Source of the DNA: Bdellovibrionota bacterium
Lineage (GTDB): Bacteria; Bdellovibrionota_C; UBA2361; JAAYZI01
Direction: 5' to 3'
Assembly: GCA_050950765.1 (NCBI GenBank)
Contig: JBMNIF010000003.1
Span: 288,001 to 352,000 of the forward strand
DNA length: 64,000 nt
The notes beneath the pieces are model-generated. The model did no database searches and was not told the origin of the DNA. It saw nothing but the letters and a program-made list of their open reading frames with translations. Positions 51,930 to 58,800 of the stretch are shown here, piece after piece. The position numbers and the translations under genes were made by a program. Within the stretch, counting starts at the first letter, position 1, and every line of letters starts with the position of its first letter.

Positions 51930-52919
51930 CTATAAAGAAAGCTCCTTAGAGTGAATGTAGGAAATAAATTTTTTCTCATCAGTTTTTTTATAAGCCACCT
52001 CTTGATGCGATCTATCCGCAATTTCTTTAGCAGTTAACCCTCCGAGATCTCGTCTCACCAATAACAACACCTCACGTTCAGAAGTATTAAAGTTAGATAG
52101 GTCTAGCTCGCTCTTAGCAATATACCTCTCTCCTACATAACCGTTTGGATAAAAGACTTCATCCACTTCAAGCAACCCTTCTTCAACCATTGAGGCAAAG
52201 TAAAGGTTGAAATCATCAATCACAGGACCGTAATCAATTTTAACATAGCGCGTGCCAGTAATTGACAATCCGAACTCTTTGCACGCTTTAAAATCCGCAT
52301 AAAATAGAAGCTTATTTAAGTTCGTCTTTTGACAGCCGCCTTTGCAAAAAAATTGAATAACACTTTTAAGTCTATTTAAATCAAACTTTCGATAACCTGA
52401 GTACTCATCAACATCATTCTTAGTAAAAACAACTTCAAATAACTTCGATATAACTTCACTCCTACGAGGAGTCAGTGCAGATATTAAATCGCGTCTTCTT
52501 TCTGGTGAAAAACTGCCTCTGTTTTCTTTTAATAAACGCAATATATTTAATGGCTCTCTAAGTAACCCTAAAACTCTTTCGTGCGATTCACTTTGAAGTG
52601 CCCCATTTTCATATCGACTAAGTGTAGCAACGCCCCATCCAAGAAGATCAGCTAACTCAACTTGTAAAAACCCATATTGCTTTCGAAACGCTACTATCTC
52701 TTCAGGTTGAGTCCATCGATGTCTCTTCCTATATTCACGAAATGCAGAATCATTCGGATCGCTATCTGGATCATAAAAATCGGTGCCACATTTTTTACAA
52801 ACAAAAATAGTAACAGGCACATCAATTGTGTCACCTCTTACTTGAAAAGATTCTAAACACTCTTTCCGTTTGAGTTGAGTTTCTTTTTCACAGTTTGGAC
52901 AAAATCCTTTGGTTATCAT
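51930..52919 (-). CDS. MqsA-like antitoxin (CxxC Zn finger + HTH) fused to a DUF4065/Panacea domain
   Basis: CPNC..CKKCG, HTH LSRYENG, KLLFYADF..GPV..SH. Confidence 0.85.
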   Translation of the reverse strand: MITKGFCPNCEKETQLKRKECLESFQVRGDTIDVPVTIFVCKKCGTDFYDPDSDPNDSAFREYRKRHRWTQPEEIVAFRKQYGFLQVELADLLGWGVATLSRYENGALQSESHERVLGLLREPLNILRLLKENRGSFSPERRRDLISALTPRRSEVISKLFEVVFTKNDVDEYSGYRKFDLNRLKSVIQFFCKGGCQKTNLNKLLFYADFKACKEFGLSITGTRYVKIDYGPVIDDFNLYFASMVEEGLLEVDEVFYPNGYVGERYIAKSELDLSNFNTSEREVLLLVRRDLGGLTAKEIADRSHQEVAYKKTDEKKFISYIHSKELSL

Positions 52920-52930
52920 ACTAACCTCCT

Positions 52931-53293
52931 TTATCGATATACGTTCCTAAGAGGATATTCTGCTTCGTGAAACGAAATACATATAACTGCTTGGTGCGTA
53001 CCTGTCTTAACAACCTTCACTTTAATATAAACCGGTCGCTCACAGATCTTTTTACCAAAAGTCCAAACGTTCCCTTTAAACTTTAGATCAAGATCTGCAT
53101 CTGGTTCTGAACAGTAGTCTTCAACCTTTAAGTTCATGACCTCTTGCCTGCAATTTTTGATAGTGAACCCCATCCTTAGTAAAGCATCGCGGTTCTTTTC
53201 TCTGGGGATGAGATAGAACTTGCCGCCTGCTTTAAGTATCTGTCTGAGATCATCAAAAAAGATCTTAACTGCCTCTTTGTCAGCCATAACCAC
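52931..53293 (-). CDS. MqsR-like toxin
   Basis: REKNRDAL, VWTFGK..VYIK, CISFH; upstream of the antitoxin. Confidence 0.75.
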   Translation of the reverse strand: MVMADKEAVKIFFDDLRQILKAGGKFYLIPREKNRDALLRMGFTIKNCRQEVMNLKVEDYCSEPDADLDLKFKGNVWTFGKKICERPVYIKVKVVKTGTHQAVICISFHEAEYPLRNVYR

Positions 53294-53797: not shown

Positions 53798-54628
53798 ATG
53801 AAAGGAGAGATAAATTGGTATTATTTACTTAATGGAAAGTCGATTGGTCCCTTCTCTAAGAAGCAGTTACTAGCGATGGCTTCCTCAGGAACTATCCAGA
53901 AGAACACACTCGTTTGGTGTTCTGACGATACTCAAGGGTGTGCCCCGTTAGAACAAGCCTTCGCATTTAAAAAAGAATCACCATCAGCGCCTTTAAATAC
54001 ACCCTCAAGCACCCCCTTAAATGACACCCCTACGGAAGAAGTGCTAACTCAAACTACGGAAGAGTTTAAGGAGCAAAAGATACCTTTTTTCTACCATTCA
54101 TTACGACGCTACTTTGCCAGATGCTTGGATTACACTATTTGTGAATACCTAATAAAAATAATATTCTTTGCATTAAATCCGATTGCTGCAAAGGAATTTT
54201 TTACTTACATTGAGAAATCAGAACTCTCATTTGTAGTCTTATTTTTTATTTATGCTATAACCTTATTTCTCAACGCAGCCTTGATCGGTTATACAGGAAC
54301 AACCATTGGTAAGTGGCTTTTTGGGATAAGAGTTGTAGATTCAACGGGCTCTCCTATCAGTTACAAACGTGCCCTTCATCGAGAATTTTTAGTCTGGCTA
54401 AGAGGAGTTGGGCTTGGCATCTTCCCGATAATTTTTGGCACCTTATTGTACCAATCTCATCAATTTGAAAAGAATAACAGCACATCTTGGGATCGAGATC
54501 TAAAGCTATCAGTAGTTTACCGAAAGCCAGATTTTCGCCAATTTTTTCTTGGACTTATTGCATACGACATAATAAGTATTTTATTAACACGACTTCATAA
54601 AGCATTACTTGACGTTGTTGATATGTAG
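53798..54628 (+). CDS. GYF_2 (DUF4339) + RDD family membrane protein
   Basis: WYY..NG..IGPFS..TLVW; RRYFARCLD, TIGKWLFGIRVV. Confidence 0.85.
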   Translation: MKGEINWYYLLNGKSIGPFSKKQLLAMASSGTIQKNTLVWCSDDTQGCAPLEQAFAFKKESPSAPLNTPSSTPLNDTPTEEVLTQTTEEFKEQKIPFFYHSLRRYFARCLDYTICEYLIKIIFFALNPIAAKEFFTYIEKSELSFVVLFFIYAITLFLNAALIGYTGTTIGKWLFGIRVVDSTGSPISYKRALHREFLVWLRGVGLGIFPIIFGTLLYQSHQFEKNNSTSWDRDLKLSVVYRKPDFRQFFLGLIAYDIISILLTRLHKALLDVVDM

Positions 54629-54834: not shown

Positions 54835-55566
54835 TCACTCATGAAAATACGCCCAATCACCAATCAGTTCATACGATCCACAGAATTTAGAGTCTTGCTC
54901 CATAATACGACCAGCGACCTCACAATAATTCTGTTTTGGAAGGTAATAAAACTCATCGAACATAAATACCCCACTAACCGATAGCTTCCAACGATTCCCT
55001 TTCCAATAAGGAGATTGACTTAAAACTTCATATTTATACTCGTTATAAGCGGCCAATCCTGGAGTTGGAAGTGTTGCAAAGTATTTAGGCACAAGCGCTT
55101 CTAAATTAGGGGGTGGTGCATCGTTTTCAACTTCAAAAGTCTTGATAGCGTGTATAAGGTCTTTACTTTTTAGAGCAAGACGTTCTAAACCTGCAAATTG
55201 CAATTTAATTGCAAAGGAAGATCCGTGTATTAACACCAGACCTATTATTGCCGCACTAAACATCTTTACAACTCGATCTCCCCTGTTAGGACCTGTTAGA
55301 AACTTAATAAAATTGAGCAGTATAGATATAAGTATAAAACAGATCAAACCTCCCATTACTGCACTAGAAGCAAAGTGTACTGTTCCACTTAACGTTGCTT
55401 TAAGCGGTGACCAAGGTAATACTGCCACCGCATTTACGATAATAAAAATAACTGTAACAACCAAAGCAAAGAAAAATAATCCAAAAAACTTTATTAGAAA
55501 CTTTATTAGAGATCTGCGATCTAATGACCTACCACTTAAAAGTTTTGATATTATCGATAAATTCAT
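54835..55566 (-). CDS. array paralog A: 3-TM protein with GspG/pseudopilin-like C-terminal domain
   Basis: AIKTFEVENDAPPPNLEALVPKYFATLP; NYC..CG..IGDW. Confidence 0.7.
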   Translation of the reverse strand: MNLSIISKLLSGRSLDRRSLIKFLIKFFGLFFFALVVTVIFIIVNAVAVLPWSPLKATLSGTVHFASSAVMGGLICFILISILLNFIKFLTGPNRGDRVVKMFSAAIIGLVLIHGSSFAIKLQFAGLERLALKSKDLIHAIKTFEVENDAPPPNLEALVPKYFATLPTPGLAAYNEYKYEVLSQSPYWKGNRWKLSVSGVFMFDEFYYLPKQNYCEVAGRIMEQDSKFCGSYELIGDWAYFHE

Positions 55567-55568
55567 AG

Positions 55569-55814
55569 CTAACCCTTCGCACCATCTTTTTGGCTAAACT
55601 TCTCTGCAATCCACATCTTCACCAACGACTGCCTAGCAGCTCCAAAACGTCGAGCTTCCTTGTCTAAACTTGCAATTACCCAAACAGGAAAGTCAATATT
55701 GACCCTCTTAAGTTCAGTGTTAACTCGTCGAGCTTTTGATTTATCAAGGTATTGAGTAACATCATCACCACGCTTAAAAGTAGCATCAAAATCTTTGGCT
55801 TTAATTTTCTCCAT
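55569..55814 (-). CDS. CopG/BrnA-like antitoxin with no toxin in view
   Basis: KAKDFD..F..GDDV..YLD.SKARR..KRVNIDFP.W....LDKEARR.G..RQSLVKMWIAE. Confidence 0.8.
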   Translation of the reverse strand: MEKIKAKDFDATFKRGDDVTQYLDKSKARRVNTELKRVNIDFPVWVIASLDKEARRFGAARQSLVKMWIAEKFSQKDGAKG

Positions 55815-55903
55815 ATAGTTCTACACTATTATACACATTCACCTTTTAACGAAATTAACATTTACATATCTCTTAGCGATATTCTAGAAATTTTTTCAAG
55901 AGA

Positions 55904-56693
55904 TCAATCACGAAAATACACCCAATCACCAATCATTTGATACGATCCGCAGGATTTTGGGTTTTGATCCATAGTAGATCTTTTAGTTCGACAATAGTTC
56001 TGGTTTGGGATGTAAAAAAACTCATCCAACAGAAATACCCCTTCAACTGATAGCTTCCAATAACTCCCATTCGTAGCAGAATTGAAAACATTATAGTCGT
56101 ACTCACGATACCTTGCCAACCTTGGAGTTGGAAGTGTTGCAAAGTATTTAGGCACAAGCGCTTCTAAATTAGGGGGTGGTGCATCGTTTTCAGCTTCAAA
56201 AGTCTTGATGGCGTGTATAAGGTCTTTACTTTCTAAAGCAAGACGTTCTAAACCTGCAAATTGCAAATTGACCGCAAAGAAACCTCCAAATATTAATATT
56301 ACAACCATCATTGCTGCGCCAAACATTGTGGCAACCCCATGCCACCTATCTGGGCCTACCAAAATCATAATTAAACTAATCGGTATAGATAAAATCGCGT
56401 AAAACACCAAAACTAGCAAACCTACCCCCCATAAAAGAGAAAGCAAGAACCACTCCTTCACTAATTAACGGTGCTTTTAGGAATGACCAAGATGATACTG
56501 CCAACGCATTTACAATAATAAAAATAACTACAACAAATAAGGCAATTAGAGATAGTATAGAAAAGCACTTTAAAGGAGAAAGGTCGTCTTTCTCCTTTTT
56601 TAGCCACCATTCATTTTCATCTGACTTATCAAGACACGGAGTGGCACCGTCATCATGCTTAAAAGTGTTATCAGAATCTATGTCTTTTTCCAT
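55904..56693 (-). pseudogene. array paralog B, frameshifted at a G6 tract (56425-56430)
   Basis: ORFs 56376-56693 and 55904-56461 join if one G is removed. Confidence 0.75.
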
Positions 56694-56781
56694 ATAATTC
56701 TACGTTATTATACACATTCACTTTTAAACAAAATCACCTCTATATATCTCTTAGCGATATCCTAAGGAGCATTCCAAAGAA

Positions 56782-57576
56782 TCAATCAACACTATAAAAC
56801 GCCCAATCACCAATTAAGAGATATGATCCGCAGGATTTAACGTTTTGCCTCATGGGAGAATCCGCGATCTCGCAATAGTTCTGTTCCGGAAAGTAAAGAA
56901 ACTCACTGGACAAAAGTGGTAATTTGACTGATAGCTTCCAACGATTCCCCTTCCAATAAGGAGATTGATCTAAAACTTCATATTCATACTTGTTATAAGC
57001 AGCCAATCCTGGAGTTGGAAGTGTTGCAAAGTACTTAGGCACAAGCACTTCTAAATTAGGGGGTGGTGCATTGTTTTCAACTTCAAAAGTCTTGATAGCG
57101 TGTATAAGGTCTTTACTTTTTGGAGCGATACGTTCGCAAGCTACGTATGGTGATTCAAGTACAAATCCCATTGCATACATTGGCAACATAAACGTCATTG
57201 CTGCGCTCAACATTATGGCAACTCCATGCCACCTATCGGGACCTATTAAGATCATAATTAAACCTATCGGTATAGCTAGCATCGCCAAAAACAGCAAAGC
57301 CACCAGCAGCATGATTAAAGGATACATTAAGTATTGGTTGCTCAGCACTCCTTTGATTGGTGACCAAGGTGATACTGCCATATCAGCCACGATAATGTTT
57401 ATAGCTGCAATAAATAGAAAGGTGAGACATATTATAAAAAACAACTTTAAAGGAGAAAGATGATTTTCCTCAGCCTCCTTTTTTAGCCACCATTCATTTT
57501 CATTTGACTTATCAAGACACGGAGTGGCACCATCACCATCCTTAAAAGTGTTATCGGAGCCTATATCTTTTTCCAT
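56782..57576 (-). CDS. array paralog C
   Basis: same core as A, B and D. Confidence 0.75.
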   Translation of the reverse strand: MEKDIGSDNTFKDGDGATPCLDKSNENEWWLKKEAEENHLSPLKLFFIICLTFLFIAAINIIVADMAVSPWSPIKGVLSNQYLMYPLIMLLVALLFLAMLAIPIGLIMILIGPDRWHGVAIMLSAAMTFMLPMYAMGFVLESPYVACERIAPKSKDLIHAIKTFEVENNAPPPNLEVLVPKYFATLPTPGLAAYNKYEYEVLDQSPYWKGNRWKLSVKLPLLSSEFLYFPEQNYCEIADSPMRQNVKSCGSYLLIGDWAFYSVD

Positions 57577-57622
57577 ATAATTCTACGTTATTATACACAT
57601 TCACTTTTTAACAAAATCACCT

Positions 57623-58444
57623 CTACATATCTCCTAGCGACATCCCAGAAGCTTTCCTAAGAGATCTCTCATAAGAATGCACCCAATCACCAATCAATAT
57701 ACGTGGTCCACAGAATCTAGAGTCTTGATCCAAAGTATAAATAGTGTCATCACAATAGTTCTGTTCTGGAAGGTAATAAAACTCATTAAACAACATCTCT
57801 ACTTCGATTGATAACTTCCAACGATTTCCTTTCCAAGCAGGATCTAAAACTTCATATTTGTACTCGTTATGGGCAGCCAAGTTAGGTCTCGGAACTGTTG
57901 CAAAGTATTTAGGCACAAGCGCTTCTAAGTTAGGGGGTGGTGCATCGTTTTCAGCTTCAAAAGTCTTGATAGCGTTTATAAGGTCTTTACTTTCTAGAGC
58001 AAGGCGTTTTAAACCTGCAATTTTCAATTCAGTTGCAAAGAAACCTCCAAACGTTAATATTACAAACACTATTGCTGCGCCAAACATTGTTGCAACCCCA
58101 TGCCACCTATTGGAACTTATCAGAATCATAATTAGACTAAGAGGTATAGCTAGCATCGCAGAAACCGGTAAAGCTCTCTGCAGCAGGATTAAAAGAAACA
58201 CCACATAACGGCTACTCAGCGCTCCTTTAATTGGTGTCCAAGATGATACTGCTATATCAGTCAAGATAATGTTTATAGCTGCAAAAAATAGACCAGCTAG
58301 ACATATTATAAAAAACCACTTTAAGGGAGAAAGATCGCCTTCCTCATTTTTTAGCCACCACTTATTTTTATTTGACTTATCAAGACACGGAGTGGCACCG
58401 TCACCATCCTTAAAAGTGTTATCGGAGCCTATATCTTTTTCCAT
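57623..58444 (-). CDS. array paralog D, C-terminus reading through into the spacer
   Basis: same core; extra tail RSLRKASGMSLGDM comes from the conserved spacer. Confidence 0.75.
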   Translation of the reverse strand: MEKDIGSDNTFKDGDGATPCLDKSNKNKWWLKNEEGDLSPLKWFFIICLAGLFFAAINIILTDIAVSSWTPIKGALSSRYVVFLLILLQRALPVSAMLAIPLSLIMILISSNRWHGVATMFGAAIVFVILTFGGFFATELKIAGLKRLALESKDLINAIKTFEAENDAPPPNLEALVPKYFATVPRPNLAAHNEYKYEVLDPAWKGNRWKLSIEVEMLFNEFYYLPEQNYCDDTIYTLDQDSRFCGPRILIGDWVHSYERSLRKASGMSLGDM

Positions 58445-58800
58445 ATAGCTTCACCCTTCATCTTTTTAAAAGCATTGTACAGAGATTAACCTGTCTCTAT
58501 CTTCACAACAAGTAGTAACCTACCCCCCTGCTACTATCCTTTACCTTTTTCAAGCAGCAAAAAGCACGAACCCACACCCTCGCTATGGCTTTAATTTTGT
58601 TTTTCAGTGGATATCAAGATCTCTAACTCATACACCTAAGCGCCTCTACATACTTTTCAAGCACCATTTTCAGTTTAAGGGAATATTTTCTAAGTTTGAC
58701 AGGAATAACCTTAAGACGCTTCCCAGATAGACAAATCTTCAGAGCATTGAGCGCCATTTCTAAAGTAAGAAAACGAAAAGGATCGACACTCCCTCTCTCG

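Follow-up and report, generated by a model that had tools for sequence, protein, structure and literature searches.

A decayed brnTA cassette as the likely source of the N-terminal tails of a membrane-gene array in an uncultured Bdellovibrionota lineage

We examined an array of membrane-protein genes and one antitoxin gene on the minus strand of a 64-kb stretch of DNA from a Bdellovibrionota bacterium (contig JBMNIF010000003.1, positions 288,001 to 352,000; 64,000 nucleotides (nt), hereafter the window, in whose numbering all coordinates are given). The genes stand in tandem in the order unit D, unit C, unit B, brnA and unit A, where brnA encodes a ribbon-helix-helix (RHH) protein. Unit D (57623..58444, 273 amino acids (aa)) and unit C (56782..57576, 264 aa) are intact chimeric genes; in unit D, a BrnA-derived tail (~codons 1-24) leads through a linker into three membrane helices, followed by a conserved C-terminal domain. 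Where units A, B and C have their stop codon, unit D reads AGA, so that its open reading frame (ORF) runs for 14 more codons (57623-57664, minus strand) into a spacer derived from brnT, the toxin gene of brnTA toxin-antitoxin (TA) operons. Unit B (55904..56693) is a chimeric gene split by a frameshift into ORFs of 105 aa (56693-56376) and 185 aa (56461-55904); read by eye, the B row of the alignment has a 1-nt insertion after a run of G at the break, and the contigs across this site are letter-identical and gapless in sequencing runs of two different studies. The brnA gene (55569..55814, 81 aa) is an intact orphan antitoxin gene, and 2 nt past its stop lies unit A (54835..55566, 243 aa), an unfused membrane gene with a short N-terminus typical of its family. 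The module homologous to brnA codons 1-26 measures 78 nt and occupies 58367..58444 in unit D, 57499-57576 in unit C and 56616-56693 in unit B. Searches of the whole genome returned only these four copies for unit D and only this single gene for the RHH protein.

The RHH protein matches the BrnA model NF047399 over residues 4-72 (E 5.6e-30, 103.3 bits against a cut-off of 60) as well as PF12441 (CopG_antitoxin, 28.4 bits against a cut-off of 28), and it is 75-85% identical to many BrnA proteins from diverse bacteria; by these measures the gene is a bona fide BrnA antitoxin. The initial annotation had read this part of the array as an intact CopG/BrnA-like gene followed 2 nt later by the membrane gene, with which both the coordinates and the NF047399 score agree. 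A close brnA is carried by 11 of 60 relatives of the same order. The RHH core of the local protein is mostly kept, with F57, A59 and A60 standing where 119 homologues have another residue, conserved at 97%, 85% and 96%, and with neither A59 nor A60 present in any of these homologues; on the strength of these substitutions, DNA binding by the orphan BrnA may be altered.

MAFFT matches the opening 78 nt of each of units B, C and D to the opening 84 nt of brnA across a single in-frame gap of 6 nt, with nucleotide identities of 56/75, 54/75 and 53/75, respectively (71-75%). Global alignment scores of these tails against brnA gave z values of 10.5 (B), 9.7 (C) and 8.7 (D) relative to 2000 shuffles, and the observed scores were reached by none of the shuffles and by none of ~2800 random 78-nt segments of the window. 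The nucleotide alignment is therefore significant over the coding start of all three units, and the earlier description of B to D as starting like the antitoxin and running in frame into the membrane domain stands, though it had missed that unit B is frameshifted. The N-terminal 27 residues are as conserved as the rest of the protein in the BrnA family (16-row alignment; 119 homologues), which makes the segment ancestral in BrnA and derived in the membrane genes and sets the direction of transfer from brnA to tail. Furthermore, 119 other BrnA proteins include none with E2 or K14 and only 3% with T12, and all three residues are common to the local RHH protein and the tails of B, C and D, indicating that the copying was local, from this very gene, and took place after those changes. 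A hand count on the alignment gives 1 of 26 residues changed on the brnA branch since the split, compared with 11 changed and 2 codons lost on the tail branch. At one position where the window tails have A, the BrnA state V is found in a strain variant of the protein (P0002) and in a variant letter at 57527 in sequencing run X8. The tail alone is not recognized by Pfam, the first 45 residues of each unit giving 0 families at E<=10. On the basis of their DNA homology to the local brnA, on which the link rests, the tails of B, C and D are BrnA fragments and not members of the BrnA family.

The toxin partner of this antitoxin is missing. As the initial annotation had stated, there is no toxin gene: the BrnT family (PF04365) has 0 matches at E<=1 in the organism's own genome, which is 94% complete, and a PF12441 search of that genome found no member besides this brnA. 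Among 14 related brnA loci in public genomes (4 of the 6 closest labelled Bdellovibrionota), 8 have a brnT gene of 87-90 aa directly upstream of brnA, and the two genes overlap by 14 nt in 7 of these 8 and by 20 nt in the remaining one (L014). In the closest related loci the BrnT C-terminus reads ...VELYE-E-(N/S)-stop, and the brnT frame across the start of the window's brnA reads VELYGEN-stop, so that the likening of its VELYG to a BrnT tail was apt. We built a DNA profile of 250 positions from brnT alone, without the part overlapping brnA, and its best nhmmer match in the window lies at 58519-58447, directly against the ATG of unit D, over profile positions 178-248 (E 0.052 in the window, 1.6e-4 in a region of 396 nt). 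In a fixed-position test, the final 75 nt of brnT from eight loci served as the reference for the 75 nt that immediately precede each ATG, with 2791 random windows as the null; this gave z 6.5 for unit D (0 of 2791 null windows as high), z 3.95 for brnA (1 of 2791) and z 2.5 each for B and C (16 of 2791 each). Detection at the protein level was poor, with translated-frame profile searches giving E 0.017-0.3 and tblastn recovering only the 7-residue end; in the translated D remnant an RIISV-like core is still visible among stops and a frameshift, and the remnant perhaps reaches ~58569 (weak tblastn match at 58569-58537, E 18).

From the DNA comparisons, the stretch upstream of every unit is the decayed 3' end of brnT and not an antitoxin promoter. 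These stretches, all on the minus strand, are the decayed end abutting the start codon of unit D (58447..58519, with stops and a frameshift inside), the stretch before unit C (57577..57651, its upstream part overlapped by the extended end of unit D), the spacer between C and B (56694..56781, 88 nt) and the spacer between B and brnA (55815..55903, 89 nt), the last two being mostly brnT-derived. The same decay is seen elsewhere in the order. We fetched nine brnA loci of relatives and parsed eight (not L038), of which six have an intact brnT-brnA pair and two (L032 in G007 and L034 in G012, both of the same order) an intact brnA behind a decayed brnT whose last ~26 codons are readable, as in the window. 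The idea that the brnT relic is cut at an identical point in three genomes was dropped, because L034 and unit D keep degenerate similarity further upstream; likewise a 28-residue BrnA match in G043 was rejected as a second truncated fragment, since the contig ends there.

The recipient of the tail belongs to an existing protein family. A single-sequence protein search found six proteins only, all of this lineage, whereas a profile of the paralogues found 958 at E<=1e-3, of which 327 reach E<=1e-10. Of these relatives we fetched 148, whose median length is 218.5 aa and whose short N-termini are unrelated to the tail; the family is characterized by three hydrophobic helices and a conserved C-terminal domain, over both of which units A to D align, with invariant P, L, P, W, P and W columns common to the units and their relatives. 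In a 74-row alignment, unit D is 62% and unit A 50% identical to unit C, and 71 distant relatives are 21-33% identical to it. Pfam gave no family for the window units and eight sampled relatives, and NCBIfam none for units A and C. Because this family of 958 relatives pre-exists, an existing gene received a new front end, and the earlier reading of the locus as a gene birth was overstated. In searches of 60 relatives of the same order with a single sequence, only one had a match (G047, E 2.9e-4); no full-length member was found in the same-order relatives searched, and the 74-row profile gave partial matches only, in 5 of 40 genomes, so that the membrane gene may, from its distribution, itself have been acquired by this lineage. 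Unit A has one peculiarity of its own, a perfect 12-nt tandem duplication at codons 19-27 (55480-55510, minus strand), which makes LIKF read twice just before the first membrane helix.

The tail is confined to the array. No significant match to the tails was found among the 148 fetched relatives (best E 2; best E 0.14 with the whole RHH protein), so that none of the distant homologues examined already carries this N-terminus, and in a database of 5.8 billion proteins the only entries between 150 and 478 aa long that bear the tail are D, C and the strain variant P0002. Thus the proposal of an origin from a decayed TA operon is borne out by four findings: the conserved BrnA N-terminus, the rare residues in common, the brnT relic before every unit and the tail-less relatives.

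An AlphaFold2 model of unit C made from the 74-row alignment reached a predicted local distance difference test (pLDDT) score of 86.7 and a predicted template modelling (pTM) score of 0.77, an earlier unit model from 6 sequences having been poor (pLDDT 54). Residues 1-40, the tail and linker, are modelled at low confidence with one short helix; after residue 40 come three long helices, the last extending beyond the membrane, and then an alpha/beta domain, in which the paralogues conserve two cysteines. Foldseek against the PDB with this model returned nothing at E<=0.001, the top entry being only a type IV pilin at E 2.9, and a wide structure search returned only generic helical bundles over residues 40-143. 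The nearest named Atlas cluster is the pseudopilin GspG (PF08334; feature score 0.84, template modelling (TM) score 0.44-0.50, no Pfam match), and a GspG-like nature of the C-terminal domain is a lead only. The positive-inside rule, applied by eye, would make the tail cytoplasmic, with the C-terminal domain on the outer side of the membrane.

The tail is probably translated. Both indels of the tail and linker region are multiples of 3, and translation of units C and D can take in the first membrane helix only if it starts, in frame, at the brnA-derived ATG; reading unit D by eye, there is no in-frame ATG, GTG or TTG between the tail ATG and this helix. From these features we infer translation of the tail into an acidic, disordered extension that lies in the cytoplasm and has no specific role.

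Taken together, these results suggest that the locus is likely an evolutionary scar, in which a decayed brnTA cassette gave three paralogues a start codon and a disordered cytoplasmic tail, and is not a working TA system. The order of events that we infer would have begun with a brnT-brnA cassette, of a kind common in this order, placed directly upstream of a membrane gene in the arrangement still seen at unit A. The brnT gene would then have decayed until only its last ~75 nt and the intact brnA survived, and the block from the brnT remnant through brnA to just past the stop of the membrane gene would have been duplicated in tandem. One copy would then have lost brnA codons 27-81 along with roughly the first 20 codons of the membrane gene, their place being taken by ~45 nt of untraceable sequence, so that the first membrane helix came to follow brnA codons 1-26 in the same frame. 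Further duplication of the fused unit would have produced B, C and D, after which recombination between units may have homogenized parts of them, with B breaking later. Of the deletion-fusion proposed in the initial annotation, the in-frame fusion is confirmed, and the simple deletion is not, as no source of the ~45-nt linker could be detected in unit A.

Several observations weigh against this reconstruction. A repeated unfused unit of brnA and membrane gene, which would be the intermediate, was not found, neither of two metagenome scans, for which unit A and an alignment of the paralogues were the queries, returning a related locus. Between the D remnant and the three spacers identity is only ~50% (17-19 matches in 35 aligned positions), though both are brnT-derived, which needs either an old divergence or fast change of the spacers. 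By eye, units B and C and brnA lack a recognizable Shine-Dalgarno sequence before their ATG. The first 26 codons of brnA are nearly unchanged, a hint of remaining function, and judging from this the orphan brnA may still be of use, countering incoming BrnT or acting as a regulator. Lastly, local alignment of the linker with the 236 nt specific to unit A was no better than chance (scores reached by 314-747 of 1000 shuffles), which leaves one clean deletion unproven, and the same picture would arise if pre-existing paralogues had undergone gene conversion. A separate candidate source of the linker, the C-terminal helix of BrnA, was dropped for lack of significance.

Under such a conversion, a segment of brnT remnant and brnA 5' end would have overwritten the N-termini of a membrane array that already had four genes, with no duplication of whole units and no internal deletion. 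The missing source of the linker fits this, and so does the mosaic nature of the units, whose mutual identity differs sharply from block to block, ranging from 43% to 100% in 30-column windows as recombination between units would produce. The tails of C and D match at 74 of 75 positions, compared with 70% identity in the second and third helices, and conversion has clearly acted on the tail segment. As the origin of the tails, however, conversion needs homology on both sides, and downstream of the tail the donor brnA core and the recipient first membrane helix share none; moreover, spacers, tails and membrane gene form one contiguous repeated block, as tandem duplication predicts. We therefore regard conversion into a ready-made array as unlikely, and retain duplication followed by fusion as the way in which the cassette's remains came to head the three genes.

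Recombination across the array may also be seen in other assemblies, where two hybrid proteins (P0002 and P0005) have a D-like or C-like front and an A-like rear, with the switch inside a near-identical central block of the C-terminal domain. These are either real contractions of the array in other strains or short-read assembly joins across the repeat. In run X8, one contig each departs from the window at 55487 and at 57943 into unlike letters, and other X8 contigs match across brnA, which suggests a second strain with a different arrangement before unit A.

The initial annotation had further proposed that the antitoxin promoter was co-opted together with the coding start and that the remaining RHH protein might regulate all copies; in this alternative, the protein would bind an operator in each spacer and control all four units from a promoter carried along with the antitoxin 5' end. 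Some observations favour such a circuit. The brnA ORF is intact with a strong BrnA match, its first 26 residues have changed little since the split, and BrnA controls brnTA transcription in Brucella abortus, according to PMC11980606. The spacers before brnA, B and C (88-89 nt) are mutually 78-96% identical (RHH-B 73/94, RHH-C 45/53, B-C 51/53) and all contain TGTGTATAAT; ATTATACACA occurs on the plus strand at 55828, 56707 and 57590 (the third copy within 57590-57599), and an identical 16-nt block with a perfect TATAAT is present in all three. Before B and C there is in addition a 6-nt inverted repeat, TATAAT/ATTATA, whose arms flank the 8 nt next to the ATG. The conserved ~90-bp spacer described earlier thus exists before brnA, B and C, but it is not repeated as such upstream of unit D, where the identity is ~50%.

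The origin of the spacers argues against this circuit. They are former brnT coding sequence, which in intact loci lies inside the operon, downstream of its promoter, and from the operon order the operator would be expected upstream of brnT. The TATAAT, merely 13 nt before the ATG, has no -35 partner in the spacers and was not called by a consensus promoter scan (13 sites compared with 13.1 expected from shuffles), and it is absent both from the remnant upstream of unit D and from the brnT sequences of relatives, so that if it is a promoter, it is new rather than co-opted. Identical runs of 16-17 nt are not unusual at ~80% identity, no inverted repeat common to all three spacers was found, and the region upstream of the D remnant yielded neither a promoter-like site nor a repeat. 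The substitutions F57, A59 and A60 at highly conserved RHH positions, which may alter DNA binding, point the same way. The co-option of an antitoxin promoter is therefore not supported, and the proposed circuit appears improbable; regulation of the array by BrnA in some form is possible, though this sequence analysis lent it no support. More doubtful still is a domestication of the TA leftovers, with BrnA as an anti-addiction factor or array regulator and the tails, which derive from the end of the antitoxin that lacks the RHH fold, serving as decoys or sensors, tethered to the membrane, for BrnT that arrives with mobile elements, a notion on which complex prediction between the BrnT of a relative (L007) and residues 1-45 of unit D counts neither way (score 0.02 against a mark of 0.34).

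The array has further genes of interest on both sides. Upstream of unit D in the direction of transcription lies a bactofilin gene (59280-58801, PF04519) with a terminator-like hairpin, separated from unit D by 356 nt without a long ORF. Beyond unit A, a second TA locus is found 1.5 kb from the array (51930-53293, minus strand), with an MqsA-family antitoxin of 329 aa (TIGR03830, 80.6 bits against a cut-off of 61.8) that has a long C-terminal extension and, upstream of it, an ORF of 120 aa with a weak MqsR match (PF15723, E 0.0063). Between both TA loci, a gene on the plus strand (53798-54628) encodes a membrane protein with GYF_2 and RDD domains (PF14237, E 2.8e-12; PF06271, E 9.2e-19).

In its wider meaning, the array is probably a clear but ordinary case of a gene acquiring a new front end by duplication and fusion. 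Most steps of the replacement are still readable side by side, namely the donor TA cassette, the toxin remnant, the full-length donor beside an unfused recipient, the fused copies and a copy in decay, and the case illustrates that selfish cassettes can supply host genes with start codons and N-terminal peptides. It also carries a warning for annotation, as a short antitoxin-like N-terminus on a membrane protein need not mean a TA function. Its importance beyond this is limited: the array occurs in only one uncultured lineage, nothing suggests a function of the tail, and duplication, fusion, conversion and decay are already known.

Compared with known systems, the locus descends from the brnTA type II TA operon, the example being the Brucella abortus BrnT/BrnA pair (Heaton et al. 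2012, cited in PMC11980606): the local RHH protein is the BrnA equivalog, and the order of toxin before antitoxin with overlapping ends is kept in the remnant. Unlike in the functional pair, the toxin gene is cut to a remnant of ~75 nt and the genome holds no BrnT, so that the locus cannot act as a TA pair. Single-gene BrnT-BrnA fusions, in which a whole toxin and a whole antitoxin are joined and an RHH or helix-turn-helix (HTH) domain is kept, are described in PMC11980606; they resemble the present case in bringing brnTA parts into one reading frame, whereas the units of this array take no more than 26 codons from the antitoxin and run on into an unrelated membrane protein. Within the uncharacterized three-helix membrane family itself, the relatives have short, unrelated N-termini, and units B, C and D differ from them in carrying the BrnA-derived tail. 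In the literature searched we came across no account of a membrane protein that has an antitoxin N-terminus fused to it.

Orphan antitoxins left behind after loss of the toxin are a known state, and the intact local antitoxin beside its decayed toxin gene is alike, as are the L032 and L034 loci; the difference is that here the first 26 codons, together with the toxin remnant, were copied three times to become the front end of another gene. Chimeric genes that arise by duplication and fusion, borrowing their start codon and N-terminus, are likewise known, and in the array a duplicated segment similarly gives a start and an N-terminal peptide to an unrelated coding region, followed by tandem amplification and decay of a copy. 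The process itself is therefore a known one, and the array is a variant of chimeric-gene formation whose donor, a TA cassette, is unusual.

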